From NCBI GenBank assembly GCA_020060775.1, contig JAGUZN010000116.1, positions 3,995 through 67,994 of the forward strand: a DNA stretch of 64,000 bases, written 5' to 3'. This DNA comes from Armatimonadota bacterium (GTDB taxonomy: Bacteria > Armatimonadota > Hebobacteria > CAIYQO01). The translations under genes and the position numbers were made by a program. A model generated the notes under the pieces. That model saw nothing but the letters and a program-made list of their open reading frames with translations, was not told the DNA's origin and searched no databases. Shown piece by piece: positions 1-58,463 of the stretch; position 1 is the first letter of the stretch; every line of letters begins with the position of its first letter.

Positions 1-736
1 CGCCGCCGAGGGCCAGGCTGAAGAAGGGTTGGAATTGATACCAGTAGTGCCCATGCGTGGTGAATCCAGCATCCATCGTGCTGTACATTGACGCATAGGC
101 TCTGTCGGTCGAGGCTCCCTGGAGTTTCAGCACCGGACTGGTGACGCCGACGGTATCGAACACCCACTTTTCGTTCCAGCCGGCAACAGCCCCGTCATCC
201 GGAGTGTAGGTGACCTTCACGCCGTTGCCTTTCTTGGCGGCAATATGGCCGTCGACGTAGGACATGATGGCGATGCCGCTGTGGCGGAAATCGATGTCGT
301 TGGGCATGTAGAGGACGTTGTCGTAGGTCACCGGCGAGGTGGTTGCCGCATGCTGGCCATCGGCGGTGAGGATGGTGTTGGCCGGCGAATCGATCTCGCC
401 GAGGGCCAGGCCAGAGACGGCATTGCTGTAGCCGTAGGCGTTGGCGACTTTCTTGCCCTTGGTGGGGCACATGAGGATGTTGCGATCCACGTTGATCTGC
501 GGCCAGACATCCGCGGAGAAGGGCATCTCTTCGTCGTGATCCTGGGCATACATGAGGATGGCGACGGCGATCTGCCGCTGATTGTTCAAGCAGCTGGATT
601 GCCGTGCCTTCTCCCGCGCCTTGGCGAACACGGGGAAGAGAATCGCGGCCAGGATAGCTATGATGGCAATCACGACGAGGAGTTCAATCAACGTGAACCC
701 TGATCTGGCCCGCACGGAACGGATAGCGAGTTGCAT
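1..736 (-). CDS. Pseudopilin-like protein with prepilin-type N-terminal cleavage/methylation domain and H-X9-DG motif. The 3' end lies outside the window.
   Basis: The minus-strand frame is open from ATG (736..734) to the window edge, so it is missing from the ORF track (no in-window stop). My translation reads [69 protein letters not shown]...[15 protein letters not shown]. An AAGGAGG-type SD lies just upstream. The C-terminal part differs from the other paralogs. Confidence 0.85.
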
Positions 737-853
737 TCGAGGTACCTCCTTTTGAATAATCCCGAAAGATCTGTTATCGATATCCACTCCACCGATATGG
801 TGGAATGTCACACCCCTGGTTCGTGCTCTCTGAGCAGGCGCATAGCTTGCCGT

Positions 854-1816
854 TCACTCCGGCCAGTAGGCGGTGTTGATCATGAACTCGCGGTCGGCAA
901 CCACACGCTCTTTAAACGTCGCTTCCGCGGCTTCGTTAGTTTGCTCATAGGCATAAAGGCCTATGTACAGCTTGCGAGCCTCCAGCGGGTAATCCAGGCT
1001 GGTGGTCACGCCGTAATTGGAGAGTTTCACCGCGCCACCCTCGAGAGCGTCAGCCGGCAGCAACAGGCCGAGCGCTCCCTTTTTCTCATGCTTATCGCCA
1101 TAGAACACCCAGGTATCGGCAGGTGTCAACGGCAGTGCGGGATACGGCTGAGCTTCCGACGGTTTGAAGTCGGGTGGCACTTCGCCGGCAGCACCCTGGG
1201 AGGTGTACGCATAGCGGTGACTGGGAATGCCGTGTGCGGGGCCGAACCCGCCTGGATATCCATGTAGACTCACCTTGATGGACTCCACCGCCATGCCAGG
1301 CAGCGTCAGGTCGACGCGCAGGAAGATGGCATGGCCGTCGTCGGGCACCAGGAAGTTCAATGCCAGCTTGCGGTTCTCGTTGAACTCCCAGATGAAGCGC
1401 AGGTAGCCGTTCGGCCCTTCCTTGCTCTCGACGCGGGTGGCGGGTGCGGCGGCCATAATGTCGTGGCCGTTCACCAGCACGCGGAGGCAATTACCGCGAT
1501 ACCAGTTGCCGAAGGGTCCGCCATCCAGGCCGACGCCCATATCGTAGCCGGCGAGGGAGGGATACTGGCCAGTGAAGTGCGGAGGGACATTCAAGTAGCG
1601 CGTGTAGTGGATTTGCGGTTTGGCGGCTCCGGCGGCAAAGGTCCAGGTTTCACCTTTGAGCGACGGTTTTTTTTCGTCGCCTTCGGTCAGCCGGGCTTTC
1701 TTTTCGATCTTCACATTGGTGTCGCCCATTGCCGCTTTCAAGGCATCCAGGCCATCCGCGGAGGCGAGTGCTGCCGCAAGACAACACACCAGCAGTGCGA
1801 TCAGCAAACGCATCAT
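854..1816 (-). CDS. Secreted hypothetical protein. It is a stand-alone copy of the C-terminal domain carried by the pseudopilin-like proteins.
   Basis: Track ORF 854..1828 starts at GTG. ATG at 1816 follows a GGAAGGTGGAAGG SD and gives the signal peptide MMRLLIALLVCCLAAALASA. By eye it aligns to the pilin C-termini: GNWYRGNCLRVLVNG vs [30 protein letters not shown] vs [22 protein letters not shown] vs CYPAGFN, and PADTW...GLLLPADA...VKL vs PSDSW...[12 protein letters not shown]. Confidence 0.8.
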   Translation of the reverse strand: MMRLLIALLVCCLAAALASADGLDALKAAMGDTNVKIEKKARLTEGDEKKPSLKGETWTFAAGAAKPQIHYTRYLNVPPHFTGQYPSLAGYDMGVGLDGGPFGNWYRGNCLRVLVNGHDIMAAAPATRVESKEGPNGYLRFIWEFNENRKLALNFLVPDDGHAIFLRVDLTLPGMAVESIKVSLHGYPGGFGPAHGIPSHRYAYTSQGAAGEVPPDFKPSEAQPYPALPLTPADTWVFYGDKHEKKGALGLLLPADALEGGAVKLSNYGVTTSLDYPLEARKLYIGLYAYEQTNEAAEATFKERVVADREFMINTAYWPE

Positions 1817-1856
1817 TCTACCTTCCACCTTCCATCATCAACCTTCGAGTGAGTTC

Positions 1857-1977
1857 CTTAGAAATTGTTTTCAACATCTCTGTCCGGTCTCTGATAGCGC
1901 CTCGGAGCCCCCAGACCAACAGCCACGAACATTTACGGAGCGATCCGCGAACAGATCCTGTGAAAATCATTTCTTAG
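1857..1977. repeat. Intergenic palindromic element, copy A (MITE/REP-like)
   Basis: Left arm is CTTAGAAATTGTTTTCAACATCTCTGTCC. Right arm is ACAGATCCTGTGAAAATCATTTCTTAG, its imperfect reverse complement. It shares the GCGATCCGC(G/A)AACAGATCC core with copy B. Confidence 0.7.
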
Positions 1978-2045
1978 TTCTCGATGCACCCTCCACGGGA
2001 GCTGGTTGCCGGAATCAGCATATTGCTCGTATGACACTACAGACC

Positions 2046-2075
2046 TTGATTAGTTCTGTACCGGTGCAGTATACT
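2046..2075 (+). promoter_or_regulatory. Sigma70-like promoter of the LacI gene at 2111
   Basis: TTGATT (2046-2051), 18-nt spacer, TATACT (2070-2075). The predicted TSS falls inside the palindrome at 2080-2093. Confidence 0.5.
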
Positions 2076-2079
2076 GTTA

Positions 2080-2093
2080 TTAAACAAGTTAAC
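2080..2093. promoter_or_regulatory. Operator-like palindrome TTAAACAAGTTAAC (family GTTTAACTTGTTAAAC)
   Basis: Inverted half-sites GTTAAC/TTAAAC around a central AAG/CTT. It lies 17 nt upstream of the LacI start, in the divergent region shared with gene 854..1816. The same motif recurs at 7281, 8912 and 13975. Confidence 0.55.
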
Positions 2094-2110
2094 ATCTCTG
2101 GAGTCCGGGC

Positions 2111-3139
2111 ATGGTCACCGTTCGCCAACTTGCAAAACTTGCCGGCGTTTCCACCGCCACCGTTTCGCTCAGCCTGCGCAATGATCCGCGCATCTCGGCG
2201 GGGACCCGGCAGCGCATCCAGGAACTAGCCGCCCAGCATCAATACCGCAACAACCGCATCACACACATGGCCGGCCGTGGCGAGGCGGTGCCGGTCGGTT
2301 ATCTGATTTCAGCGATCACCTCGGTGTTCGGCATGCAAGCGCTGGATGGCATTATCGAAACGCCCACCAGGAACAGCTACAGCATCCTGCCGATCCAGGT
2401 ACTGAGCAATCCGCTGGTGACCCAGCAGGCCATTCACGACTTTGTCCAGCAACGCGTGGCCGGCGTGCTGATCTTCCCGGGACAGATGGCTCCGGTCACC
2501 TCGGCATCCGTACTGGAGATGTGGAGCCAGGGCATCTACCCCATTGCGCTCAACTACACCCTGTCGGAGATCCCCATCGACAGCGTCTTCACCGACGATG
2601 ATGCGGCCGGAGAGATCGCCGTCGAGTATCTTGCCTCGCTTGGCCATTGCCGCATCGGCTATCTCGGACAGGTAACACACGGTAATGCCGTTCGCCGGGC
2701 GCAGGGCATCCGCGCAGCCCTTGAACGTCGAGGTCTCTCGACCGATTACCTCCTCCATCGCCTGGAATCGCATAAGCTGGACATCTGGGACAGGGCATTG
2801 GCCACATTTCTGGCGATGCCGCACCCACCGACCGCCATCATTGCGCAAACTGCCGGCATCACCGCACGTCTGATGCAACGTGCGACTCGCATTGGGCTGC
2901 GGGTGCCGCAGGATATCAGCCTGCTCGCCGGCAGCGAGTCAACCATTACCGAGTACAATAACCCGGCCATCACCGCGATCGCTGAACATCCCAAAGAGTT
3001 CGGCCGACAAGCTATTCTGTTATTGCAACAGCGGTTGCAGGATGAGGCGCCGCCCTCGGCTATCAAGCCGGCGCTCATCAAGGTTGCCCCCACACTGATC
3101 GTGCGGGAGTCCTGCACTCACCCCCGAGCGCGTGGCTAG
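2111..3139 (+). CDS. LacI/GalR-family transcriptional regulator
   Basis: N-terminal HTH MVTVRQLAKLAGVSTATVSLSLRNDPRISAGTRQRIQELAAQHQY, followed by a periplasmic-binding-protein-like sugar-binding core. Confidence 0.9.
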   Translation: MVTVRQLAKLAGVSTATVSLSLRNDPRISAGTRQRIQELAAQHQYRNNRITHMAGRGEAVPVGYLISAITSVFGMQALDGIIETPTRNSYSILPIQVLSNPLVTQQAIHDFVQQRVAGVLIFPGQMAPVTSASVLEMWSQGIYPIALNYTLSEIPIDSVFTDDDAAGEIAVEYLASLGHCRIGYLGQVTHGNAVRRAQGIRAALERRGLSTDYLLHRLESHKLDIWDRALATFLAMPHPPTAIIAQTAGITARLMQRATRIGLRVPQDISLLAGSESTITEYNNPAITAIAEHPKEFGRQAILLLQQRLQDEAPPSAIKPALIKVAPTLIVRESCTHPRARG

Positions 3140-3285
3140 TTCGGCAATCGGTCGCCAACTTATGCTTTACTAATGCGGATAAGTTAATATATTGTACTGC
3201 TGAGAGTTGCATCCGTCAAGGGGATGGGGTATCGTATTTACTCCGGCACTGTCGATTGCATCGCCTGGTATGCATCGGCATGCCG

Positions 3286-3304
3286 GGTAATTCCACGGAT
3301 TACC
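3286..3304. promoter_or_regulatory. Inverted repeat GGTAAT-N7-ATTACC immediately upstream of the second LacI gene
   Basis: The 6-bp arms are seen directly, 9 nt upstream of ATG 3313. Function is unknown. Confidence 0.25.
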
Positions 3305-3312
3305 GAGGCATT

Positions 3313-4413
3313 ATGCGAGTAACACAACGTGATATTGCCGCTCGCTGCGGCGTTTCCAACGCCACCGTCTCCCTCGCCTTGCGGCACGACCCGCAAATCA
3401 GCGAGGAGACCATCGAACGCATTCATACGGTGGCGGCTGAGATGGGGTATGTGCAGGGCCAGAACCAGGCGGCGCGCCGTCTGGCGCTGCAACGTTTCGG
3501 ACGTCCGGTCATCAATCATGTCATTGCCGCCTTCTTTTCAGACGAGTTCTACCGGCAAGCCTACTCAATGCGCGTGTACCGCGGCATTCTGGAAACGACG
3601 ACGCGGGCCCGTTTTGCCTTGCTCACTGCGACCTTCACCCACCCCACCGACTCGGCCGAGTCGCATGTGCCAGCGGTGTTCACCAGCGGCGAAGTGGACG
3701 GCATCATCACCCATGCCGGCACCGACGCGCATTTCTACCAGGAGTTATCGCGCTACCCCGGATTCCGCTCTCGCCCGGTCGTCTCGTTTTACGAGCCTGT
3801 GCCGGGCTGTGCCTGCGTGCGGTTTGACGATGAACAGGGCTCGTACCAGGCGGCACGCCATCTGCTGGAATTGGGTCACCGGCACCTGCTCCTGTGCATC
3901 ACGCGCGAACTGTGGGCAGATACCGCTGGACCGCGCGTGCACGGCGTGCAGCGCGCCATGGCCGAGATGGACCTCGATGAGCACCGGCACCTCCACCTGC
4001 TGGAAGTGCCGGTCGGTTGGATTCATCCTGATCAGACGATGACGTTTGCCGATATGCCGCGCGATGACGGGGAGTTGTTTCCCGGCCTGCTGGATCTCCT
4101 GTGCCGGCATCCTGAGGTGACGGCGATTCTCGCGCGCAATGACTCGATCGCGCTCCGCGCCTGGCACGATCTCACCCGTGCCGGCTACCGCATCCCCGAG
4201 GATTACAGTCTGGTCGGTTACGACGATTACACCGACATCCCCGACGCGCACGGCGAGAATATACTTACCACGGTGCACGTACCACTGGAGGAGATGGGGC
4301 GGCAGGCAGCGCAGTTGCTCATCGACCAAACCACCGGTGAAAGGACCACGCACCAGGAGATCGTGTTGCCAGTGGAACTCCTGGTGCGTGCATCGACTGC
4401 GCCGCCGCGATAG
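3313..4413 (+). CDS. LacI/GalR-family transcriptional regulator
   Basis: The track ORF starts at 3256. The internal ATG at 3313 gives MRVTQRDIAARCGVSNATVSLALRHDPQISEETIERIHTVAAEMGY, which has typical LacI N-terminal spacing. Confidence 0.88.
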   Translation: MRVTQRDIAARCGVSNATVSLALRHDPQISEETIERIHTVAAEMGYVQGQNQAARRLALQRFGRPVINHVIAAFFSDEFYRQAYSMRVYRGILETTTRARFALLTATFTHPTDSAESHVPAVFTSGEVDGIITHAGTDAHFYQELSRYPGFRSRPVVSFYEPVPGCACVRFDDEQGSYQAARHLLELGHRHLLLCITRELWADTAGPRVHGVQRAMAEMDLDEHRHLHLLEVPVGWIHPDQTMTFADMPRDDGELFPGLLDLLCRHPEVTAILARNDSIALRAWHDLTRAGYRIPEDYSLVGYDDYTDIPDAHGENILTTVHVPLEEMGRQAAQLLIDQTTGERTTHQEIVLPVELLVRASTAPPR

Positions 4414-4416
4414 TCA

Positions 4417-5493
4417 TTAGTCCGCCAGGCGCCGGGCGACTTCCCAGTAGGTGCGTACATTCTCTTCCGGGGTGTCGGGATCGACACCCGAACAGAAGAT
4501 CGTGTAATTCTCGCCTAACGCCTCGCTCATCTGCCAGAGCTTGGCTTCGATCTCTGCCGGCGTCTGCGTGATGAACTGCCCGGGGTCGTAGTAGGCGTGA
4601 ATGAGCGTATGGGGAAAGAGGGCGCGCGCCTTGGCCAGATCGGTGCCGTCACCCAGTTGCAGCAGGGTGATGTTGGGCACCTGGGCAAAGAGCTCGAGTA
4701 AGTGAGTGGAGCGCCCGCAGGAGTGAATGGTGCCGCCTTCACAATCCGCCATGATGCGTTGATAGAGCGGCAGCGAGAACTGCTCGTAGAGCGATGGGGA
4801 GAGCAGGGTGGCGGCGCAGTCGCCCAGGTGGATCTTGGTGCCCTGCCAACCCATGCGCGCGCACACCGCCGCCCATAGGCCCTGGTACTGGCGCATCAGC
4901 CACTCCAGTATCCCTTGTGCTAGTTCCTCTTCGAGGATCATATACTCCATGACGCGCTCGCCCAGCAGGCGGAAGGCGGTGGTGTACGGGGTATGCATCA
5001 CCAGGAAGCTGCGCTCGCCCTGTTCACCTTCCTGATACACATCTTGCACGAAGGCAATGGGGCGGTCGGGGTAAGCCGCGCGCATTACATCTACCTGCCG
5101 GAACAGGTCCTGAAAGAGCGGGTTTTCCTCCCAGACGATATCGCCGAGCCGCTCCAGTGCATCCAGCGAGTCTACGTGTTCCAGCGGCCGGTCCGGCGTC
5201 CACACCGACTCTTCACGCTGGAAGACCATGCGCCCGCCCAGGGCGGCGTTCATGAAATCCAGCGGCTGCACCCCGACGCCCAGCACCGGCTGCGGGTCGG
5301 CATCGCCCATGCCGTACTGTCCAAAGCGTTGGTGTTGTCTGATGGCCAACTGCTGTTCCTGTGCCAAGCGAAACAGGGGGTCGTGATGGTACCGCTCGCC
5401 ATAATCAATGCCGTATGTGCGCGCATTGTACGCGGGGTGGAAATCCAGTTGGGCGCCATGCGGCAGCGCGGTGGTGAGAATTTCCGTTGCCAT
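4417..5493 (-). CDS. Uroporphyrinogen-decarboxylase (URO-D)-like family protein; function unknown
   Basis: 358-aa ORF with an AGGAG SD. The overall pattern (C-terminal ...IHSCG...LQLGD...) recalls URO-D/MtaA-like TIM-barrel proteins. The assignment rests on resemblance only. Confidence 0.5.
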   Translation of the reverse strand: MATEILTTALPHGAQLDFHPAYNARTYGIDYGERYHHDPLFRLAQEQQLAIRQHQRFGQYGMGDADPQPVLGVGVQPLDFMNAALGGRMVFQREESVWTPDRPLEHVDSLDALERLGDIVWEENPLFQDLFRQVDVMRAAYPDRPIAFVQDVYQEGEQGERSFLVMHTPYTTAFRLLGERVMEYMILEEELAQGILEWLMRQYQGLWAAVCARMGWQGTKIHLGDCAATLLSPSLYEQFSLPLYQRIMADCEGGTIHSCGRSTHLLELFAQVPNITLLQLGDGTDLAKARALFPHTLIHAYYDPGQFITQTPAEIEAKLWQMSEALGENYTIFCSGVDPDTPEENVRTYWEVARRLAD

Positions 5494-5606
5494 GTTCTGC
5501 CTACTCCTGAGTAGTTATCTGTCTCGGTCCTGCAGGCGATCATGCGATCAATATACCCGACTTTTCCCTGTCTGTGCAGGGGGAAGAGGCCGACGTTTCG
5601 CGATCG

Positions 5607-6992
5607 CTAAAAGTACGTCCGATAGTTATACGCGTGCGGCGGCGCCACATAGGGCTTTGGTTGGCCGCCGCCATCTTCCTGGGTAAAGATGAAGATCGCC
5701 GTGCCGTTGTATGGCTGATAGAGCACCAGTTCCTCGCGCGCATCGCCGCAGAGGTCCACGGGGAAGGCTTGCGCCGCCAGGTCCTTCTTGGTGTTCCCGC
5801 AGCCCAGCGCTTCACGGACTTCCGCATCATACGATCCCAGGTCGGCCACCAGCCGCCCCCGGCCGTCCACCAGCGCACGGTCCACCGGCAGGTAGAGCAG
5901 TTCGGCATCCGGACGACTCCAGCGCACGGACATCGGCGTATCCGGATATTGTTCGTATTGCGTGAGATGGGTGAATGTCGCGATGGTTGCACCGGTCGCA
6001 GCATCCAACGTGAGAAAGTCGCCGACATGGCCGCTCTTCAGTATGATCGCCTGCATGCCGGGTTCACCCTCGATGAAGCGCCCGACCCACATGCCCTGCC
6101 CGTGGGTGACTTCTTCGGCTGAGGCCTGCCAGATGATGTTCCCCTGCACATCCAGGCAGTAGGCCGGTCCGGTGCCGCAGATGCTCATGAAGAGCCGGGG
6201 TTCCTCACCAGGACACAACGGTTGCGCAGCGGTGAAATCTGCGTGCGAGCCGAAGGTTTTCACCCAGCGCGGCTGTCCATCGGCGCCGGCGAGCATCTGG
6301 CCCAGCAGCAGTTCGGTGCACCCATCGCCGTCGATATCGCACACCGTGCCCATGTGCCCCATGGCATGCGGCTCGGCGTCGATATGCCAGAGCGGCTGCA
6401 GTTGATGATCGAAGGCAAAGGCATGACAGGGAATGCGCCCACTCGCTTCGTACTTCAACACGATGGCCGGCGGGGCGTCGGGGCCGTGGAGATGTGCGAT
6501 GAGCACGTGCGGTGAGGGCCGCCAGCACTCGTAACCAGCCGGTTCGCGAAGGTCGGCGGTGAGGGGAGACGGTATGCCGTATTTCACCTCACCGGTACTG
6601 CCGTCCAGAATGTACAGGTTCGGCCGGCCAGCCTCCCACAACTCGGCGACGACCTCGGTCTTCCCGTCGCCATCCACATCGTAGGCGCAGGCCATTCCCC
6701 GGCACGGCGGTTCATGCCAGTAGCCCTGAGTTGCATGAGTGCGCAGTTCCGGATTTCCGCGTTGCCAGAGCAGGCGGCCGTCGTGATCCAGCGCGCCCAG
6801 CCACGCGGGGGTGGTGAGCGGACCGCAGCGGTGGAGCAGGAAGTCCACGCGCCCATCGTTGTCGAGGTCGCCTAGCGAGAGAAAGGTACGCGACCACTCA
6901 CCCAACTCGATGCGCTTCCAGAGTACGGCGGCAGGTCCCTGGCAATCACCCTCAACGGCACTGGCGCCATATTGCACAGGCTTCACGGTCAC
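5607..6992 (-). CDS. FG-GAP/VCBS-type repeat beta-propeller protein; no signal peptide seen
   Basis: Repeated Ca-binding-like motifs are present: DLDNDGRVDF, DVDGDGKTEV, DIDGDGCTEL, DLCGDAREEL. The start may instead be the GTG at 6986. A distant rhamnogalacturonan-lyase (PL11)-like fold is possible but unsupported. Confidence 0.55.
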   Translation of the reverse strand: MTVKPVQYGASAVEGDCQGPAAVLWKRIELGEWSRTFLSLGDLDNDGRVDFLLHRCGPLTTPAWLGALDHDGRLLWQRGNPELRTHATQGYWHEPPCRGMACAYDVDGDGKTEVVAELWEAGRPNLYILDGSTGEVKYGIPSPLTADLREPAGYECWRPSPHVLIAHLHGPDAPPAIVLKYEASGRIPCHAFAFDHQLQPLWHIDAEPHAMGHMGTVCDIDGDGCTELLLGQMLAGADGQPRWVKTFGSHADFTAAQPLCPGEEPRLFMSICGTGPAYCLDVQGNIIWQASAEEVTHGQGMWVGRFIEGEPGMQAIILKSGHVGDFLTLDAATGATIATFTHLTQYEQYPDTPMSVRWSRPDAELLYLPVDRALVDGRGRLVADLGSYDAEVREALGCGNTKKDLAAQAFPVDLCGDAREELVLYQPYNGTAIFIFTQEDGGGQPKPYVAPPHAYNYRTYF

Positions 6993-7280
6993 CCTCCAAT
7001 ACTGGATCCGATTGCATGCATAGTAGTACGTGTGCCGGGTCAGTCGTCAACGGTTATCGCGCATAATTTGTGCAACATGTTCCGGGCATCGCATCGGGTT
7101 ACTGAGCAGCCTCGATACGCCCGAGCGGCGTTGGCCTGCCCGGCTCACCCGTTCGCGATGCAAACCCACCACGCCCAGGCTTTTGCCGGCACGGCGAAGC
7201 ACGGTTGTAGATATACACCCCAGATTGGCGATGTGTCGCATTATAGCAGAAGCAATGGCCTTCTCGACGGGTTGATGTTC

Positions 7281-7296
7281 GTTTAACTTGTTTAGC
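7281..7296. promoter_or_regulatory. Operator-like palindrome GTTTAACTTGTTTAGC
   Basis: Same motif family as 2080, 8912 and 13975. It lies 20 bp upstream of the putative -35 of gene 7475. Confidence 0.5.
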
Positions 7297-7316
7297 TGAT
7301 ATTTTTCCCCAGATCA

Positions 7317-7346
7317 TTATCGCTACAGCACTTCGCATGATATAAT
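7317..7346 (+). promoter_or_regulatory. Putative promoter of pseudopilin-like gene 7475
   Basis: TTATCG, 18-nt spacer, TATAAT. The ATTATCG(C/A)T box is conserved upstream of genes 7475, 9097 and 14218. Confidence 0.45.
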
Positions 7347-7474
7347 GTACATCGAGCATCATACCGCATCTCGACCGGTAGCAACCCCACCGTAGTGGGT
7401 TCACGCCGGGCATTTTTCAGATCTCGCAGCATGCGGAAGGTCCGGTATGTTTTCGTTCGAAAGGAGCATCAGTT

Positions 7475-8797
7475 ATGCGAACCCCATTTCTAGCAAGGAT
7501 GACGCGGCAGGCAGGGTTTACCCTTATTGAGTTGCTCGTCGTAATCGCCATCATTGCCATTCTGGCGGCGATTCTCTTCCCCGTGTTCGCCAAAGCGCGG
7601 GAAAAGGCCCGACAGTCGTCGTGCATGAACAACCAGCGGCAGATTGCCGTGGCCATGCTCATGTGGGCGCAGGACCACGATGAAACTCTGCCCGACGAAT
7701 CGAATGTTTGGCCGGAGATCAATGTGGACCGCAACATCCTCATGTGCCCTACCAAGGGGAAAAAGGTCGCCAATGCCTATGTGTACAACGGCACGCTTTC
7801 CAGCATAACGCTTGGTGAATTGCCTGACCCCTCTCAGGTGATGCTCACTGCCGACGGTAATGCGACCAGCGGTACACCGGGCGCTTTTGACAATGTTGCG
7901 TATTCGATGGACGATCTCGATTACCGTCACAGTAATCGGACAGTCGTCTCCTTTGTTGATGGCCACATGGGACTCGGCGGAGGATCGAAATTACAAATTG
8001 ATGTCATGCCGCGCACTGCCGCGCCCACGGCCTGGAATCGCACAGACTACGCCTTCAAGGTGAACAGCAACCCGGATAACAACTACTGGCCGCAAGTAAA
8101 TGCCTACCACATGAACGGCAATTACCGCCCTGGCCTGGCCGACCCCACCTGGGCGAAAACCGCCTGGTGGCAGTGGTACTACGGAGGATTCCTCTATGTG
8201 TACTTGAACGGCAGCGAAGTGTGCGGCGCCAGCGCCCCCAGCATCACCTACCGTGAGGGCAACAACTTCGCCTATGTCCGTGAAGTCTGGTCAACCCAGG
8301 GTGGGCAAATGTCAGTCGCCTTTACCGTCCCATATGACGGGCACTGCATTTACATGTCCATCGACTTTGCGAACATCACTGTCTCCAGCCTGGAACTCCT
8401 GTTAGTGGCCTACCCGGGCGGCGCATGGAGTGCCAACAATATGGAAGCTTCGTCGGCCAGCAAGACCATCACCTGTGCCAGCACAGCTTCCGCCCCCTGG
8501 CCTGAACTTGCGGTTTCAGAGCGGGAGAGTTGGGTGTTCAACTCGACTTCCACTGCTCATCGCGGCAGCGTCGGCTATGTGAAGGTGCCCGAGGAGAACG
8601 GCGTTGGCCGAACGGTCGTGACGAACTATCCGATCTACAACTACATCACCTATCCATCGGACTCGAATAGCGTACATGTTGCGCTGTACCAGTATGGTCA
8701 CCTCAACAATTCGTACCGCGACCAGTTTAAACAGTCCCTGGCGCAAACGGCGACGCGGGACATCGGCACCCTTCGGGGAGCGCCGTTCCTGTTCTAG
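7475..8797 (+). CDS. Pseudopilin-like protein: prepilin N-terminal methylation domain, H-X9-DG motif and an uncharacterised C-terminal 'WWQWYYGG' domain
   Basis: [14 protein letters not shown]|[36 protein letters not shown]; [13 protein letters not shown]; C-terminal [16 protein letters not shown]...[14 protein letters not shown]...AYPGGAW...GAPFLF. An AAAGGAG SD precedes the start. Confidence 0.9.
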
Positions 8798-8822
8798 CCG
8801 ACATAGCGACCACAGACAAGCA

Positions 8823-8848
8823 GAGCCCCGGCACACGTGCCGGGGCTC
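8823..8848 (+). terminator. Terminator-like hairpin (no clear U-tract)
   Basis: GAGCCCCGGCA-cacg-TGCCGGGGCTC, an 11-bp perfect stem, lies 26 nt after the stop of gene 7475. The same stem sequence recurs after the other two paralogs. Confidence 0.5.
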
Positions 8849-8911
8849 GCTAAGTAAAGCGGTTCTGCCGCAACAGAGGAACCTGGCACGCCGTTTACGA
8901 TCCCTCGAATC

Positions 8912-8927
8912 GTTTAACTTGTTAACT
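8912..8927. promoter_or_regulatory. Operator-like palindrome GTTTAACTTGTTAACT
   Basis: Same motif family. It is followed by an ATTTTTC...ATTATCGAT box and AT-rich TATAAG/TTATAA -10 candidates upstream of gene 9097. Confidence 0.5.
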
Positions 8928-9096
8928 AACAATTTTTCTTATAAGATTATCGATACAACGTGTTTATAAGTTATAAAAATATTTGAATGCCTTATTATCC
9001 GTGTTTTGGGGCTCCGGTATCAGCGCCTGATTTGACGGCAGGGAGCTTCGATACAAGTATCAAGGCATGCCATGTTTTATTAAAAGGAGGATTAGT

Positions 9097-10378
9097 ATGC
9101 GACACCCATCATTCCGCAGGACGACGCGGCAGGCAGGGTTTACCCTCATTGAATTGCTCGTCGTTATCGCCATTATCGCCATTCTGGCGGCGATTCTCTT
9201 CCCCGTGTTCGCCAAAGCGCGGGAAAAGGCCCGACAATCGTCGTGCATGAACAACCAGCGGCAGATCGCCGTTTCTATCCTCATGTGGGCGCAGGACCAC
9301 GACGAGGAATTGCCCGACTCCTCTAACGTCTGGCCGGAGATCAACGTGGACCGCAACATCCTCATGTGTCCCACCAAGGGCAAGAAAGTCGCCAACGCCT
9401 ACGTGTACAACAATTTCATCGCCGGCAAAGCTCTGGGCGAGTTGCCCTACCCGGACACCACGCAGATGCTCTGGGACGGGCAGCATGCGGCCACCACCTC
9501 CCCGATCACCTACGACAACGTGGCCTACACGGTCGATGATCTCGACTTCCGCCACAGCAACCGCACGCTCACCGCGTTTCTCGATGGCCATGTCGCCATC
9601 CAGGCCGGGGGCACCGACCGGGTAGTCGCCGAACCTCATCCCTATACGGGGTACACCGATCACTGGGTTCATGGTAAAACAACTGACCAAGAAGCATTCC
9701 TTAACATCCGCGTGCTGCAAGCGCCTTATGCCGGCCATCCGGACCAAGACCAACTGGTGGCAGTGGTACTACGGCGGCTTTATGTCGATCTTCGTGAATG
9801 GCGTAAACGTCTCCGGACCGCCCTGTAATACCTATTCTTCACGCGGCGGGGCCAATTATGCCACCGTGCGCCAGACGTGGAATATCGGCAACGGCCAGAT
9901 GAACGTAGATTTCCAGGTGCCTTACGACGAACACTGCATCTACACAACGATCAGTTTTGTGGATGTCACGGTCACCAGCCTGCAAGTGAACAACTGGGCG
10001 TATTCCGCTGGCTTCGTCAATCCCGCGACACGCCGTGTGACAACCGCCAGCGGATCTATCGAAAACGCCCAGGCCACTGATGTCTCAAAGATCTGTCACC
10101 CCTCGGATAGCTGGGCCACCCTGAATGCACCTGATCGTGCGAATCTGGGTGTGTTGGGCATGGTCTGGTTGCCGCAGGAGGGCGTCACCGTTACTCCGCA
10201 CGTCTCGAACTACTGGACGTATATCGGCATGGACTTCCCCTCCGGCACCACCACCGCGCACATGGCGTTCTATGCCTGGAACAAGCCGAGCAACACCGAG
10301 CCGACTATCCGCACGGAATTCCTGAAGACCCTGGAACATGATAAGAACGTGCTGGCCGGCGGCCCGTTCCTCTTTTAA
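9097..10378 (+). pseudogene. Frameshifted pseudopilin-like paralog (prepilin N-terminus, H-X9-[10 protein letters not shown] domain)
   Basis: Two overlapping ORFs, 9067/9097..9828 and 9671..10378, together reconstitute the full architecture of gene 12458. The frame changes around 9736-9750: ...[11 protein letters not shown] in frame 1, then [14 protein letters not shown] in frame 2. ATG 9097 follows AAAAGGAGG. Confidence 0.75.
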
Positions 10379-10402
10379 CACACGTAAGCACTGTACACAC
10401 AG

Positions 10403-10438
10403 CGAGCCCCGGCAAACCTGCCGGGGCTCGGTCTTTTT
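10403..10438 (+). terminator. Rho-independent terminator
   Basis: CGAGCCCCGGCA-aacc-TGCCGGGGCTCG (12-bp stem) followed by GTCTTTTTCC. Confidence 0.8.
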
Positions 10439-10462
10439 CCAGGCATGACGCGAAACACTGCT

Positions 10463-11245
10463 TCAGGGTGTCACGCGTACCCAATCGGCGAAATCACGCT
10501 GAAAACGCGCCAGCACCTGATAGGGGTCTGTCGCCATGTAGTAGAAGCGTCCATGCCGCGTCACCGCGCCTCGCGGCGGCAGCGTACCCAGCCACACGAC
10601 GGTGTGGATGCACCCACCCATTGCACAGTACAGGCGTGAGCAACGCTCCCAGCCGGCGGCGTAGACCTGCGTGCGGTCGATGGACTGACAGAGGATAATC
10701 GGCAGATCGGCGAGGTTCTCCCCGCTCACCTGGCGATTGCTCGGCACAGCGTAATGGACGTTGATGTCACCGACAGTTTTCAGCCCCCACTGCGTGGCAA
10801 CGAAGGAACGCTGTGTCCATTCCGTGTTGCGCTCTTTGCGCGGGCCATGGAACGCACTGTTCACCCAGCTTGTGGGAATATGCTCCGGCATGGTACACCA
10901 GGCGCCGCCATTGTGCGCGAAGCAAAAATCGGCCTCTGCATCGGTATACGACACATCGCCATCGTTGAACAGCGTAAACGTGAGGTCGACGACCTCGTGG
11001 TCGATAACGACCAGATCCGTCTGATAACGCAATCCGCGGTCGCCCAGCGTCTGCCGCACTGACCACCCGCCGGCGATTTCGATCCATTCCGGCCGGGCGA
11101 CATGGCAATGCATGTAGCAGGCTTCCCACCCGCTCACAATTTCCGGCGCCAGCATTGACCAGCGCCGATCACCATCATCGGCTATTCCAATTCGTGAGCA
11201 TTCGAGCATTGGTGTGAGCTTGAGCATCGCAGCAGTAGTCGGCAT
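10463..11245 (-). CDS. Hypothetical protein (260 aa)
   Basis: Long ORF with coding-like composition and no recognisable motifs. It sits between the pilin paralog and a LacI gene. Confidence 0.6.
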   Translation of the reverse strand: MPTTAAMLKLTPMLECSRIGIADDGDRRWSMLAPEIVSGWEACYMHCHVARPEWIEIAGGWSVRQTLGDRGLRYQTDLVVIDHEVVDLTFTLFNDGDVSYTDAEADFCFAHNGGAWCTMPEHIPTSWVNSAFHGPRKERNTEWTQRSFVATQWGLKTVGDINVHYAVPSNRQVSGENLADLPIILCQSIDRTQVYAAGWERCSRLYCAMGGCIHTVVWLGTLPPRGAVTRHGRFYYMATDPYQVLARFQRDFADWVRVTP

Positions 11246-11329
11246 GGTGTCCTCCCCAAAGTTCAGTTACATGACGTACTACGCCGGAATATCAGAATTC
11301 CCTGCTGTCTTTTGGTGAGTCATCAGGGG

Positions 11330-12340
11330 TTATTGCCGCGGAGGGACGCAGGAGGCACGCTTGATCAGTTGCGCCGGGAGGGCGACCTGTGCGAAGTCAC
11401 CGTGCAGCAACGGCGAGGGGTCGTCCATACGGGCGAAGAGCAACTCCACCGCGCGTTTCGCCACCGCCTCGGTGGGTTGGGCAATCGTGGTTAGCGGCGG
11501 AGACAGGTGGGCGGACAGCGGATAATTGCCCACGCCCAGCACGCTGAGCTGGGCAGGCACATTCAGCCCCATGTGCCGAGCTACGGTCATGGCCCTGGCC
11601 GCCAACTCATCGTTATCGCCGATGATTGCCGTCGGGGGATGCTTCGCACCCAACACGACCGCCAACTCGTGGTCGGCATCTTTGAAATCCCGGTCGATGA
11701 GCATATCGGTCGGCAATCCCCGCCGCACCAGTGCTTCAAAGATCGCCCGCGGTCGCCCAGCGACGGGACCTTTCGACAGGAAGCCGAGGTAGGCGATGCG
11801 GCGGTGACCGAGGCGGTACAGGTAATCCACCGCCATCTCCCCCAGTGCCGTTTCATCGGTGCCCACCCAATCGACCGGGCAATCTACGGGGGTCACATCA
11901 TACGTCACCACGGGTATGCCGCATGCGAGCAAGTGCTGAATGAGTTCGGCGGGCAGCGGGTGAAAATGCCCCGAATGCATGATAATGCCATCCACGCCGA
12001 GCGCTTCGAACTCCTGGAGAATAGCCACCGTACGCACAGGCAGGCCCTTATTCAACTGGCAGAGCCAGCGGCAGTGGTGTTGCGCGCAGGCATCCACCAA
12101 TATCGTGCCGAGTGATATCTCAGTAGTCGAATAAAACCCCCGGGACACCCAACCGATCATGCGCTGGTGCGCGGGTAGTTCGACGGGGCCGCGCACCAGC
12201 GGGGCGTAGTGATACGCCGCCGCCATTTGCAGGACGCGCTCTCGTGTCGCCGGCGCGACATTCGCCAGTCCATTCAAGGCCCGGTACGCGGTGGCCGGCG
12301 ATACGCCCGCCAGTTTAGCCAGTTGCCTGAGTGAAAGCAT
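11330..12340 (-). CDS. LacI/GalR-family transcriptional regulator
   Basis: The track ORF runs to 12397. The Met at 12340 gives MLSLRQLAKLAGVSPATAYRALNG, which aligns with MVTVRQLAKLAGVS of the LacI at 2111. The start is uncertain (12349 and 12397 are also possible). Confidence 0.85.
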   Translation of the reverse strand: MLSLRQLAKLAGVSPATAYRALNGLANVAPATRERVLQMAAAYHYAPLVRGPVELPAHQRMIGWVSRGFYSTTEISLGTILVDACAQHHCRWLCQLNKGLPVRTVAILQEFEALGVDGIIMHSGHFHPLPAELIQHLLACGIPVVTYDVTPVDCPVDWVGTDETALGEMAVDYLYRLGHRRIAYLGFLSKGPVAGRPRAIFEALVRRGLPTDMLIDRDFKDADHELAVVLGAKHPPTAIIGDNDELAARAMTVARHMGLNVPAQLSVLGVGNYPLSAHLSPPLTTIAQPTEAVAKRAVELLFARMDDPSPLLHGDFAQVALPAQLIKRASCVPPRQ

Positions 12341-12352
12341 CACGGCCATCCC

Positions 12353-12364
12353 GAAACATGTTTC
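12353..12364. promoter_or_regulatory. Perfect 12-bp palindrome GAAACATGTTTC (LacI-type operator candidate)
   Basis: Seen directly, 13 nt upstream of the preferred LacI start and 22 nt upstream of the putative -35 of divergent gene 12458. The half-sites GAAAC/GTTTC resemble LacI-family operators. Confidence 0.45.
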
Positions 12365-12386
12365 AGAATTATATCGCATTCTCCTG

Positions 12387-12416
12387 TTGACTGGCAAGGG
12401 AACGTGCAGGATACTT
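12387..12416 (+). promoter_or_regulatory. Putative promoter of gene 12458
   Basis: TTGACT, 18-nt spacer, ATACTT. Confidence 0.4.
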
Positions 12417-12457
12417 ATCCTTAAGGGATCATCTCCCAGCTGTTACGTGAAAGGAGC

Positions 12458-13777
12458 ATGCTTATGAAAACCACCCGTCGGGGCTTCACGTTGATCGAGT
12501 TGCTCGTCGTGATCGCCATTATTGCTATCCTCGCCGCCATTCTCTTCCCGGTGTTTGCCAAAGCCCGGGAAAAGGCCCGCCAGTCGTCGTGCCTGAACAA
12601 CCAGCGGCAGATCGCCGTCTCCGTCCTCATGTGGGCGCAGGACCACGATGAGGAACTGCCCGACTCCTCCAACGTGTGGCCGGAGATCAACGTGGACCGC
12701 AACATCCTGATGTGCCCCACCAAGGGCAAGAAGGTCGCCAACGCCTACGTCTACAACAACTGGATCTCCGGCAAGGCGTTGGGCGAACTGAGCTCACCGG
12801 ACACCACCCAGATGACCTGGGACGGCCAGCATGCCGCTACGACAACTCCGCTCACCTATGACAATGTGGCCTACACCATCGAAGACATTGATTTCCGCCA
12901 CAGCAATCGCGTTCTCACCTCATTCCTCGACGGCCATGTGTCTGTGCAGGGCAGCGGCTCGCCGCGGGTGTTAATTGAAAAGTTTGTACAACCCTCCGGC
13001 CACGTCGACTACCGCGTTCACGGCATCACCCCCACCACCCTTCAAACGAAATGGCCGACTGTGCGCGTCATGCAGTCCGGGGCCGGGTACCCGGCATTCA
13101 CGGATGCCCTGGGCGCCTGGACCCATACCGCCTGGTGGCAGTGGTACTACGGCGGGTTTTTGATTGTCTACGTCAATGGCTCGGTAGTTAATAACGTCAT
13201 CTGCAACTCCTACACCGCGCGCGAGGGATTCGATCACGCTTCCGTGCGCCAGACGTGGAACGTGGGCAGCGGACAGTTGCATATCGACTTCCAGATCCCC
13301 TACGATGAGCACTGCATCTATACGACCATCAGCCTCGTTGGGGTCTCGGTGACCAGTCTGCGCGTGCGCAGCCAGTGCTATCCGGCGGGATTCAACCTCC
13401 CGCTCCCCGCCAACGGCTGGGTGAAAAAAGCTACCACCGCGAGCGGCTCGGTCGCCTGCCCGGCTACTCAGGCTACGTATAGCACGTATATATGCAACCC
13501 GTCAGATAGCTGGGTCACCTTCTGTGCGCCCGAACGGGCGAATGCCGGCATTCTCGGCCAGATATGGCTGCCCCAGGAGGGCGCGACTGTGAAGTTGCAA
13601 GCGTCGTACTATGCCTGCGAAACCGACATGGAATTCCCCGCCGGCACCACGATCGCCCATACGGCGTATTACCAATGGATGAAACCGAGCAACACCGAGC
13701 CGACCATTCGCGCGGGGTTCCTGAAGACCCTCAACCATGACAAGAACATGCTGGCCAGCGGACCGTTATTGTTCTAA
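12458..13777 (+). CDS. Pseudopilin-like protein: prepilin N-terminus, H-X9-DG motif and WWQWYYGG C-terminal domain
   Basis: MLMKTTRRG|[36 protein letters not shown]; [13 protein letters not shown]; [16 protein letters not shown]...[14 protein letters not shown]...CYPAGF...SGPLLF. The start could instead be ATG 12464. Confidence 0.9.
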
Positions 13778-14019: not shown

Positions 14020-14217
14020 GAAACGGTAAAGGATGTCGACAGGCCGCATCTTCACCGTTTGCTTTACGGTAGATGGATGGCAGGCGCTGCTGTTGATGCC
14101 CGGCACCCATTGCCCTACTGCCCCCGCTTTTTCGGTCGACGCCGGGAAGAGGTCCGTTAGAGAGACTTCCCATCCTCCGCGACCACATCAATTGCCATCG
14201 TGAAGGAGACTTGGACT

Positions 14218-16233
14218 ATGACGGTTGTCCGACACTGGCCCGCCTGGGTCGTGCTGGCGCTGCTGGCGAGCATCCCGGGAATGACCCTCCCGGCTGCCGC
14301 CGCCGTCAGCGCCCGCGAGGTCACCAAAGATGGGGGCACGCAGATTGTGCTGAGCAACGATCGCGTGCAACTCACCTTCGCGCCCGCCCATGGGGGGCGA
14401 TGCACCAGTTTCCGCCTGCTGCCATCCGGCGAGGAATTTGTGGGGAAGGACCAGCTCGGTTTCTTTCTCGATCACTGGGCGAAGTACGTCTGGCCGAGCG
14501 GGCTCTATCACCTGCCGTACCAGCATGCGATTGTCGGCGATGGTAAGACCCGCGCCGGCGTCCACCTGTGGATCGTCGTGCCCGCCAAGGGGGGCGGCGC
14601 GGGGGCGTCCGGGGCGAGCGCATCCAAAGCGATCGACACTTCGCCGGAACTGATCGGCCTGGAAGTGCACAAGACGATCTGGCTCACCGCCGGCAGCGAT
14701 CTCGTCGAGGTCGAGCACCGCATTGTGAACCCCACCGAGGGCAGCCGTTCGGTCGCTCCCTACATGCAGCACCATTTCAATATCAACGGCAGCCGCTTTT
14801 TTGATACCTGGTATATGCCCTCCAATCAGGGAGTGATGTGGAGAATCCAGCCGGAAGACGAGTACGGCAAAGCGTATGGCCCGGAGTGGATTATGGAGCC
14901 GACAGCGGGCTGGATGGCGGTACGCGACCGGCAGACCAATGCCGGCCTGCTCTTCACCTTTGACTATAATTATCTGCGCAAGATGTACACCTGCGGTGAG
15001 ACGGCGGAATGGTTTATGGAGGCGGTGCCCGTGTCCGCGGGCAAGCAGTTCACCACCCGCTACTGCGTGAAGCCGGTGACGGGCTTCGACGGTTTTGTGT
15101 ATGGTTCCGAGCGCCTTGTCGCCAACATCGCCGCGCGCGAGAAGGGCAAGGATGTGCATATCACGCACGATGTCATGGCGGTGGGGCAGCCGTTGCCCAA
15201 TGCCGAAACCACCATCATGGTGATGGACTGGAAGAGCAAACAGGTCATCGTGAAACGTTCATGGACGGACAAGGCGATCGGGGGGAAACAGATGCGCCAC
15301 GCGCTCACCTGCACCCCCAGAAAAACGGCAGACGGCCTGCTGATCCGGGTGTCCGTGCAGAGCAAAGGGACCACCGAACAGTACGAGCTGTTCTACGCCG
15401 GTGATATCTATGAGCATGAACGGCGCTACAGCCACTTCGCCACCGGCGGCGGCGCGTTGCCCGAAGCCAAGGGCGATGCCTATTTTGTGCAAGCCCCGCG
15501 CAAAGTCAAAACGATCGACAAGCCGGACTTCGCCGACATCCCCCGCCCCACGCCGGACACGTTCCGCGTCTTTGCGGCCTTCGGGCTGTACACCGACTTC
15601 TTTGCGTTCGACGACGCGGTAGAGGGGTGGAAGAGCCGCGGTGGGGCAGCCCCGCAGTTCACCTGGGTCAACTGCCCGCCCAACGGCATCGAGTCCTTCC
15701 CGGGGAGTTACGAAGAACTGTTCGGTTACAATCTGATCATCCTGGGCGATGTGAACTACCGCGCGCTCGGCGATATCCCGATGGAGATGCTCTGCGACTA
15801 CGTGGAGCAGGGAGGCAGCCTGCTGGTGACCGGCGGGCCGTATGCGCTGGGCAACGGGGAATTTGAGGGGTCGCGTTTCCTGGAGGTGCTGCCCGCCACC
15901 CTGTCCGGCCCCTTCGATATGCAGTGGGCGGGCAAGGGCAAGTCCTGGGCGCTCCAGGCTGCGCCCGACGGGAAAGCGCTGATGCAGGGCGTCGCCTTTG
16001 CACAAACCCCGCGCGTCTACTGGCAGCACGCCGTGACGCCCAAACCCGGCGCCACCGTGGCGCTCACCGCCGGCGGGAAACCGAGCCTGGTGCTCGGGCG
16101 CTATGGCAAAGGACGTGTCGCGCTGTTGACGCTCAGTCCGAACGGCGATCCTGCCGCGGGCGAGACTGCCTGGTGGGACTGGGACGGCTGGTACACGCTG
16201 ATGAAAAATCTGTTCACCTGGTTGAACGTCTGA
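14218..16233 (+). CDS. Secreted protein with a C-terminal class-I glutamine-amidotransferase-like (GATase1-like/DUF1355-type) domain
   Basis: ATG 14218 follows an AAGGAG SD (the track ORF starts at GTG 14200). Signal peptide MTVVRHWPAWVVLALLASIPGMTLPAAAA. C-terminal LFGYNLIILGDVNYRALGD...YVEQGGSLLVTGGPYALGNG...FLEVLPATL...GKGRVALL. Confidence 0.7.
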   Translation: MTVVRHWPAWVVLALLASIPGMTLPAAAAVSAREVTKDGGTQIVLSNDRVQLTFAPAHGGRCTSFRLLPSGEEFVGKDQLGFFLDHWAKYVWPSGLYHLPYQHAIVGDGKTRAGVHLWIVVPAKGGGAGASGASASKAIDTSPELIGLEVHKTIWLTAGSDLVEVEHRIVNPTEGSRSVAPYMQHHFNINGSRFFDTWYMPSNQGVMWRIQPEDEYGKAYGPEWIMEPTAGWMAVRDRQTNAGLLFTFDYNYLRKMYTCGETAEWFMEAVPVSAGKQFTTRYCVKPVTGFDGFVYGSERLVANIAAREKGKDVHITHDVMAVGQPLPNAETTIMVMDWKSKQVIVKRSWTDKAIGGKQMRHALTCTPRKTADGLLIRVSVQSKGTTEQYELFYAGDIYEHERRYSHFATGGGALPEAKGDAYFVQAPRKVKTIDKPDFADIPRPTPDTFRVFAAFGLYTDFFAFDDAVEGWKSRGGAAPQFTWVNCPPNGIESFPGSYEELFGYNLIILGDVNYRALGDIPMEMLCDYVEQGGSLLVTGGPYALGNGEFEGSRFLEVLPATLSGPFDMQWAGKGKSWALQAAPDGKALMQGVAFAQTPRVYWQHAVTPKPGATVALTAGGKPSLVLGRYGKGRVALLTLSPNGDPAAGETAWWDWDGWYTLMKNLFTWLNV

Positions 16234-16248
16234 CGAGGAGGAGCACCC

Positions 16249-47789: not shown

Positions 47790-47866
47790 CGATTGCATGG
47801 TAATGACCGGGCGGACAACACCGGTCAACGCTGTCCTGTGGCGAAACGATGAGGGAGAATACCACA

Positions 47867-51913: not shown

Positions 51914-51927
51914 AAGAAGGAGAGCGT

Positions 51928-54312: not shown

Positions 54313-54390
54313 CTTGCGATGAAGTCGGCATCAGCGTACTCCATCTAAATCCGTGATGTATCTAAAAATCACCCAGTAAAGAGGGCAGGC

Positions 54391-58407: not shown

Positions 58408-58463
58408 CCCTACGCCCCGCACGACAATAGCATCTAACACCGGAACGAGAAGGAGAATGATCG

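Follow-up and report, generated by a model that had tools for sequence, protein, structure and literature searches.

We analyzed a stretch of 64,000 nucleotides (the window) on contig JAGUZN010000116.1 of an Armatimonadota bacterium. It contains a group of genes for pilin-like proteins in which an N-terminal anchor is joined to a large C-terminal domain, referred to here as the head. These proteins are a variation on the modular-pilin theme, with an uncurated domain family, whose predicted fold is of a known type, placed on anchors of the DUF1559 class. A sequence-only reading had described three genes with one design, a prepilin leader and an H-X9-DG module followed by a common C-terminal domain, and analysis of the open reading frames (ORFs) with Pfam and NCBIfam found this design in 7475..8797, 12458..13777 and the frameshifted gene 9067..10378. 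The frameshifted gene is present, although the start proposed for it at 9097 is an internal Met of the ORF that starts at 9067. The motif blocks listed for the common domain (WWQWYYGGF, VPYD(E/G)HCIY, YPGG/YPAG, DSW, LPQEG and GPFLF) were all read in the translations.

The head also occurs as a free protein. Its gene had been placed at 854..1816, and the domain is indeed there; the ORF runs 854..1828 on the minus strand, with an ATG at 1816. The gene at 1..736 had been called a further pseudopilin-like gene, which is correct as far as it goes, but its full product has a fourth, divergent head. The 245 residues visible in the window match the beginning of P0208 exactly; this protein is encoded on the same 68,995-bp contig, continues into a head with the motif CYPGGY and terminates in APMVF. 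P0065, with which the visible part shares 64% identity, has a head that matches the domain profile with an E-value of 1.1e-25 and the free protein with an E-value of 1e-20. The P0208 fusion gene comes 118 bp after the free gene. These genes and that at 38961..40238 all lie on the minus strand, which had been left unstated. Coordinates are collected in Table 1.

Pilin anchors and interchangeable heads

All five anchors in the window begin with the leader RQAG↓FTLIE (the arrow marks the predicted site of prepilin processing), with Glu at +5 and a long hydrophobic helix, as in type IV pilin and pseudopilin signals. All five also contain the H-X9-DG motif, which has the consensus RHSNRxxxSFxDG in the 7475, 12458 and frameshifted genes. 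The anchors matched PF07963 (N_methyl) with an E-value of 1e-9 and TIGR02532 (NCBIfam) with 33-36 bits against a cut-off of 16.3. Membership in DUF1559 is indicated by scores of 25.8-30.5 bits against PF07596 (DUF1559/SBP_bac_10; cut-off 23.3), with the match confined to profile positions 2-47 of 268. The anchors did not qualify as pseudopilins of the type II secretion system (T2SS). GspG (30-34 bits, cut-off 88.85), GspH (29 bits, cut-off 80), GspJ (19-20 bits, cut-off 64.85) and all other Gsp and Com equivalogs in NCBIfam stayed far under their cut-offs, and the Gsp matches covered the N-terminal helix only.

The window proteins share the leader, the conserved N-terminal ~100 residues and the H-X9-DG motif with the DUF1559/H-X9-DG prepilin-type family. 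Typical members of that family end shortly after the H-X9-DG motif, whereas the window proteins run ~270 residues further. At the DNA level, the five anchors have long identical stretches in their first ~300 nt. Because the differences fall mostly at third codon positions, the anchors are old paralogs under selection rather than recent copies. Since the head is also found in a free protein and in multidomain proteins of the glycoside-hydrolase (GH) type, the fusions classify as modular type IV pilins.

More than 1,400 proteins matched the 12458 product at E≤1e-20. The best 120 of these are mostly ~350-450 amino acids long with ~48-83% identity, and ~108 of the 120 align over just the first ~35-55% of the query (the first ~160 residues). 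The C-terminal halves of some of these anchor relatives matched Laminin_G_3, RCC1, FGE-sulfatase, PA14 or F5/8-type-C domains, and most have no Pfam domain. The nearest named anchor homologs are labeled Armatimonadota, and the JGI names of close homologs cite the H-X9-DG family. The proposal that one anchor displays interchangeable heads is therefore correct and general, given that so many proteins share the anchor and differ in their C-terminal halves. The specific assignment of a LamG head to the 38961..40238 product found no support in sequence comparisons: this head had no Pfam match at E≤1, no NCBIfam match and no match among PDB sequences. BLASTP against P0193, a LamG-headed relative, reached only an E-value of 0.3.

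Interchangeable pilin heads are not a new principle and belong to the published modular type IV pilin concept (PMC8179133). In Streptococcus sanguinis, the pilin PilB carries a vWA module and PilC a concanavalin-A-like lectin module, and the concept covers 264 architectures found in over 1,200 proteins, with many more proteins predicted to carry modules without a signature (Raynaud et al. 2021, PMC8179133). The window fusions resemble these pilins in joining a class III signal and a small pilin module to a bulky module that is also found outside pilins, and ligand binding has been proposed for the module of the S. sanguinis pilins. They differ in that their anchor is of the DUF1559/H-X9-DG class, typical of Planctomycetes-Verrucomicrobia-Chlamydiae (PVC) bacteria and Armatimonadota, and in that their module is an uncurated family that also occurs free in a glycosidase cassette. 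Incorporation into filaments has been seen for the S. sanguinis proteins and is hypothetical for those of the window.

The head domain family and its predicted fold

The pilin heads are mutually 46-59% identical. The free 854..1828 product matched the 7475 product with a BLASTP E-value of 9e-24 and the 12458 product with 2e-15 over ~200 residues. An hhalign comparison of five pilin heads with 16 free proteins gave a probability of 99.8% and an E-value of 4.6e-30 over 215 columns. The by-eye alignment of the free protein with the heads thus passed a profile-profile significance test, and chance resemblance was ruled out by both sets of values. The N-terminus of the free protein, MRLLIALLVCCLAAALASA, resembles a Sec-type signal peptide, and its stop-to-stop ORF has no space for a lost pilin anchor. 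Its 41 close homologs are ~320 amino acids long, lack Pfam domains and carry the name "hypothetical".

At E≤1, neither the head nor the free protein was matched by any Pfam or NCBIfam model, and no PDB sequence matched the family profile (E≤10), in agreement with the claim that the domain is undescribed. CBM models likewise gave no match to the domain at E≤1; CBM9_1 was found only as a neighbor or fusion partner. Further copies in the window were also sought, for example in the N-terminus of the 677-residue protein at 14200, using two hidden Markov model profiles, one of 25 sequences and one of the full set of hits. These recovered just the four known copies. The comparisons support a real domain family without a curated model, which also occurs as a stand-alone protein with a putative Sec export signal.

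The free proteins and the heads have eight invariant columns in common: W109, Y110, W147, Y191, G194, W240, Y272 and P281 (numbering of the free protein). The free subfamily has additional invariant polar residues (R77, N80, R116, D123, S203, H204, R205 and D245), of which R116, D123 and H204 are not retained in the heads.

The AlphaFold2 model of the free protein, built with the family alignment, had a mean predicted local distance difference test (pLDDT) score of 92.8 and a predicted template modeling (pTM) score of 0.86. The full 12458 product was modeled independently, and this second model shows a helix at residues 12-62 and a confident head at ~170-439 (pLDDT mostly 80-98). From the WY motif to the C-terminus, both models consist of 14 strands followed by a C-terminal helix. 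A structure prediction and Foldseek search had been suggested as a check, and both models matched a single PDB structural class, the galactose-mutarotase-like beta-supersandwich, which many glycoside hydrolases, phosphorylases and lyases have as a non-catalytic N-domain. The matches were YidC P1, the N-domains of GH63, GH36, GH94, GH65, GH38 and GH101, heparinase III, xanthan lyase, MdoD and aldose 1-epimerases (3ty1, 4bze, 3mwx, 1snz); many supersandwich members had a Foldseek probability of 1.0 and E-values of 1e-4 to 2e-6. The modeled domain resembles galactose-mutarotase-like domains at the level of fold only, and its context, too, is one of glycoside hydrolases. It is stand-alone or fused to a pilin and not the N-domain of a catalytic barrel, has no sequence-profile match to those domains and adds a long C-terminal helix.

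The distribution and fusion partners of the domain, another of the suggested checks, were surveyed with an exhaustive HMMER profile search of 1.84 billion cluster representatives, in which 296 matched at E≤1e-3 and 144 at E≤1e-10. At this stage 187 proteins had been retrieved, the 150 best of the 296 representatives among them; four of the 187 have a prepilin motif, and one of the four was the window's own. A later search added the full-length fusions P0189, P0190, P0192, P0207 and P0219, bringing the fusion proteins seen outside the window to nine overall. The domain is usually a secreted protein or part of a multidomain protein of the glycoside-hydrolase type. Among 145 newly retrieved profile matches, 58 are secreted proteins of ~320 amino acids, 48 are secreted proteins of ~390 amino acids, and a further class is multidomain. 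The ~390-residue subfamily (P0067-P0148) has a helical C-terminal extension of ~80 residues that terminates in W-[ED]-[VL]-[KR]-[LF]-x-x-L-L.

The partner domains in the 28 multidomain members were GH42/GH42M (6), DUF4838 (5), GATase1_like (5), GH2_N (4), GH67N (3), BetaGal_ABD2 (3), CBM9_1 (2), GH20b (2), NAGidase (1) and GH123_N_2 (1), almost all of which belong to glycoside-hydrolase-type proteins. P0043 joins CBM9_1 to the domain, and P0075 and P0105 join GH42-like regions to it. Named members and loci come from metagenome-assembled genomes (MAGs) of Planctomycetota, Verrucomicrobiota, Kiritimatiellae, Lentisphaeria/Victivallales and Armatimonadia.

Two family members outside the window are unusual in architecture. 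In P0136 (876 amino acids), the family profile matches 16 separate short stretches (profile positions 172-207), which suggests a repeat protein derived from one segment of the domain or else a low-complexity artifact. P0060 (554 amino acids) has a Sec signal and an uncharacterized N-terminal region of ~330 residues, after which comes a pilin-subtype head (AWWLWYCGNGG). Its longest contig has the same length, 10468 bp, as that of the pilin-head fusion P0189, and the two may be encoded on one contig.

A conserved cassette and the genes of the window

In 16 of 17 fetched loci (~13 distinct places; the exception is L007), the free-domain gene abuts a gene for a GH42-like protein of ~1190 amino acids. 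The match of this protein to GH42M is weak, and the three copies scanned against PF02449 (Glyco_hydro_42) scored 30.7, 34.3 and 19.9 bits with a cut-off of 21. A CBM9_1-like protein of ~315 amino acids adjoins in most of the cassette loci, and a plain DUF1559 pseudopilin gene lies directly upstream of the free-domain gene in L010, L013, L014, L015 and L017. Gene boundaries within the cassette are contiguous or overlapping. The arrangement of pseudopilin, domain, GH42-like and CBM9-like genes recurs in MAGs of Verrucomicrobiota, Kiritimatiellae, Lentisphaeria and Armatimonadia.

The fusions P0043, P0075 and P0105 mirror the gene neighborhood of this cassette. Likewise, the pilin-domain fusions of the window are the fused form of the recurring pair of pilin and domain genes. 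Two orthologous pairs of free and fusion proteins, P0002/P0192 and P0003/P0207, have equal longest contigs (5183 and 23499 bp, respectively), which suggests that the members of each pair lie on one contig.

Table 1. Pilin-head genes, the free-domain gene and other features of the window
Feature	Position	Strand	Details
Pilin-head fusion, 440 aa	7475..8797	+	Anchor ~7475..7990, head ~8000..8794; from ORF, Pfam, NCBIfam and BLASTP
Pilin-head fusion, 439 aa	12458..13777	+	Alpha-1 helix residues 12-62, H-X9-DG ~151-162, head ~170-439
Anchor part of frameshifted pilin-head gene	9067..9828	+	Frame valid to ~9725-9760, by comparison with the 12458 paralog
Head part of frameshifted pilin-head gene	9671..10378	+	59% identical to the 12458 head
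Stand-alone copy of the domain with Sec-type signal	854..1828	-	324 aa from GTG; 320 aa from ATG at 1816
5' part of fourth pilin-head fusion gene	1..736	-	Gene cut by the window edge; full product P0208, 449 aa
Anchor with an unrelated head of ~250 aa, family unassigned	38961..40238	-	LamG assignment not confirmed
LacI-family regulator	2111..3139	+	
LacI-family regulator	3256..4413	+	
LacI-family regulator	11330..12397	-	Divergent from the 12458 pilin-head gene
677-aa protein with C-terminal GATase1_like, candidate functional partner	14200..16233	+	Downstream of the 12458 fusion

The ORFs 9067..9828 and 9671..10378 overlap and together read as one gene with a frame change, at which (9725..9760) the linker is shorter than in the 12458 paralog. 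The frame change may reflect a pseudogene or an assembly error, either of which is a simpler explanation than programmed frameshifting at 9725-9760. A near-perfect GC-rich palindrome of 20 nt, CCCCGGCACACGTGCCGGGG, lies at 8826..8845, 29 nt past the stop of the 7475 gene, and is probably a terminator hairpin. The three LacI genes that had been reported are present, one of them on the minus strand. A common LacI-type operator upstream of the pilin genes was sought and rejected: there are palindromes at these places, but they have no common motif.

Directly downstream of the 12458 gene, a stretch on the plus strand (14200..19116) encodes the 677-residue protein and then a 955-residue protein with no Pfam or NCBIfam match. 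The 677-residue protein consists of an uncharacterized N-terminal part of ~490 residues and a GATase1_like module. This module shares 37% identity with its counterpart in P0103, a fusion of the head domain with GATase1_like, and the similarity between the two proteins is limited to it. The rest of the window is rich in genes for glycan degradation, including one for an FG-GAP/RGL11_C protein and the GH123_N and GH95-like genes described next.

Several other genes were noted in passing. Four paralogous giant proteins of 1385, 1354, 1338 and 1166 amino acids are encoded at 43632..61964 (+). All have weak GH123_N matches and three also match Laminin_G_3, and the run is interrupted by a GH95-like/DUF5703_N protein at 51928..54312. 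The CBM9-like proteins of the cassette loci are weakly similar to residues ~250-460 of three of these giants. A URO-D-like gene (uroporphyrinogen decarboxylase/methyltransferase-type) lies at 4417..5493 (-), near the pilin-head genes, and another is found in L005 (1..934), ~4 kb upstream of the cassette; this may be coincidence. The gene at 19187..21058 (-) has a full-length DUF4914 match (1022 bits) and no evident link to the pilin genes.

Possible roles of the anchored domain

The fold, the fusion partners and the conserved neighbors make a carbohydrate-related role plausible for the head domain. With slightly better than even confidence, we favor the explanation that these are modular pilin-like proteins of the DUF1559 class, tethered in the envelope, whose grafted supersandwich module is probably a non-catalytic glycan-binding or enzyme-accessory domain that works beside GH42-like glycosidases. 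Each fusion would consist of a class III signal with its alpha-1 helix, the H-X9-DG pilin module and the grafted module of ~270 residues. The grafted module would bind glycan or assist an enzyme, its partners being glycosidases of the GH42-like and related types. Held in the envelope by the pilin anchor, the protein would be part of a type IV filament or pseudopilus, as a tip subunit or one of low abundance, or would instead sit in the periplasm, anchored in the membrane. Bound polysaccharide or a partner enzyme could thereby be kept at the cell. A non-catalytic role is suggested because only aromatic and structural residues are universal in the family, while the heads do not retain the polar residues that never vary in the free subfamily.

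Several results weigh against this explanation. As the sequence-only reading had noted, no ATPase, platform protein, secretin or prepilin peptidase of a T2SS or type IV pilus was found among the scanned ORFs of the 64-kb window (all long ORFs taken as genes except 37446..38810, judged by eye to be a citrate synthase). Little can be read from this absence, as pilin genes frequently lie apart from those of the assembly machinery. In the AlphaFold2 model of the 12458 product, the pilin globule is poor (pLDDT below 50 at residues 63-166, a region of shallow alignment). The template modeling (TM) scores of the Foldseek matches against solved structures were just 0.25-0.48, below the 0.5 expected for a shared fold, with ~10% identity and root-mean-square deviations of 6-16 Å, and for this reason the fold class should be read as a resemblance rather than as assignment to a family. 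Of the four fusions in the window, one (9067..10378) is frameshifted. The neighborhood evidence from outside the window comes from the 17 loci of the free family and not from loci of pilin-head fusions, and no homolog of the ~1190-residue GH42-like partner was found in the window. Scans of 185,579 species genomes (GTDB) and JGI metagenome contigs with both head subtypes gave no further pilin fusions, so the fusion is a rare branch of the family.

Another possible explanation, which we regard as doubtful, is that the pilin-like anchor is never polymerized and that the class III signal is a route for membrane anchoring or processing only. The proteins would then be periplasmic or surface-tethered through the alpha-1 helix, by analogy with the Sulfolobus bindosome. 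The lack of assembly genes nearby, among the ORFs scanned, would fit this explanation, as would the very large paralogy of the anchor, with at least five copies on the window's contig in addition to the many anchor-sharing proteins elsewhere. On the other hand, the anchor retains E+5 and a full-length alpha-1 helix, both of which serve filament packing. In line with the large paralogy, in Planctopirus limnophila DUF1559 is the largest paralog family with 68 copies, two of them essential and all of unknown function (PMC10632474), and the literature on the function of DUF1559 or H-X9-DG proteins was found to consist of passing mentions. The bindosome of Sulfolobus solfataricus provides a precedent for class III signal peptides that place sugar-capturing proteins in the envelope (PMC3047682). 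It differs from the window in being archaeal and in using the solute-binding heads of ABC transporters and the Bas assembly system, none of which were seen in the window (PMC3047682). The modular pilins of S. sanguinis, in contrast, do form filaments in spite of their bulky heads (PMC8179133), which argues against a purely anchoring role.

A less probable alternative, and an unlikely one in our judgment, is that the head is a module for protein-protein docking or for cargo. The free protein would bind the adjacent pseudopilin, as CofJ and TcpF, which are secreted, bind CofB and TcpB, minor pilins of the filament tip, and would be exported by the pseudopilus or presented on it, and the fusions of the window would make this interaction covalent. 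The plain pseudopilin directly upstream of the free-domain gene in five cassette loci is consistent with docking, and so are the adjacent free and fusion genes of the window. The relation between separate pilin and domain genes elsewhere and their fusion here is of the Rosetta-stone kind. YidC P1, which has a related fold, is not known as a sugar binder. Against docking, most family members have no pilin in the same protein and are fused instead to glycoside-hydrolase-type modules, and several cassettes (L001, L005, L008, L011 and L016) lack an adjacent pilin. The comparison with CofB/CofJ of enterotoxigenic Escherichia coli and TcpB/TcpF of Vibrio cholerae rests on a pilin with C-terminal beta-rich domains and a secreted protein encoded nearby (PMC8179133). 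Those proteins have no sequence or fold relation to the window proteins, and their secreted partner is not homologous to the pilin head as it is in the window. Docking is, in any case, compatible with glycan binding.

That the domain is itself an enzyme, for example of the mutarotase/epimerase or lyase type, is improbable: aldose 1-epimerases are among its structural neighbors and the free subfamily has invariant polar residues, but neither the pilin heads nor the wider family conserve these residues, the invariant columns being W, Y, G and P only, no Aldose_epim or other enzyme model matched at E≤1, and the fold is a non-catalytic N-domain in nearly all of the structural neighbors.

The sequence-only reading had gone further and seen in these genes a substrate-capture or display system rather than a classical pilus; no observation here shows this. 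Among the new results, the conserved association of the pseudopilin, the head domain and the GH42-like and CBM9-like proteins is the most useful. In Planctomycetes and related bacteria, the DUF1559/H-X9-DG pseudopilin-like proteins rank with the largest paralogous families, and this locus ties their anchors to a domain that in other settings is part of a glycoside-hydrolase-type protein or has its gene next to one. Together with the recurrent cassette, the locus leads to a testable hypothesis, that modules for handling glycans are tethered by these anchors. Defined reagents for testing it are the free protein, the head, the neighboring enzyme and the pseudopilin, and the uncurated head family could be added to domain databases.

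A broader and speculative extension, to which we give a low probability, is that the DUF1559/H-X9-DG pseudopilins of PVC bacteria and Armatimonadota form a scaffold comparable to a bindosome or cellulosome, with swappable heads that capture polysaccharide and dock glycosidases. The scaffold would be a filament or a membrane-anchored array, and its heads would include the supersandwich, LamG, PA14, discoidin, RCC1 and FGE-sulfatase domains. The supersandwich would serve as the adaptor between pseudopilin and GH42-like protein, covalently in the window fusions and non-covalently in the four-gene cassette. If true, this would provide a role for a protein family that ranks among the largest uncharacterized ones of these phyla.

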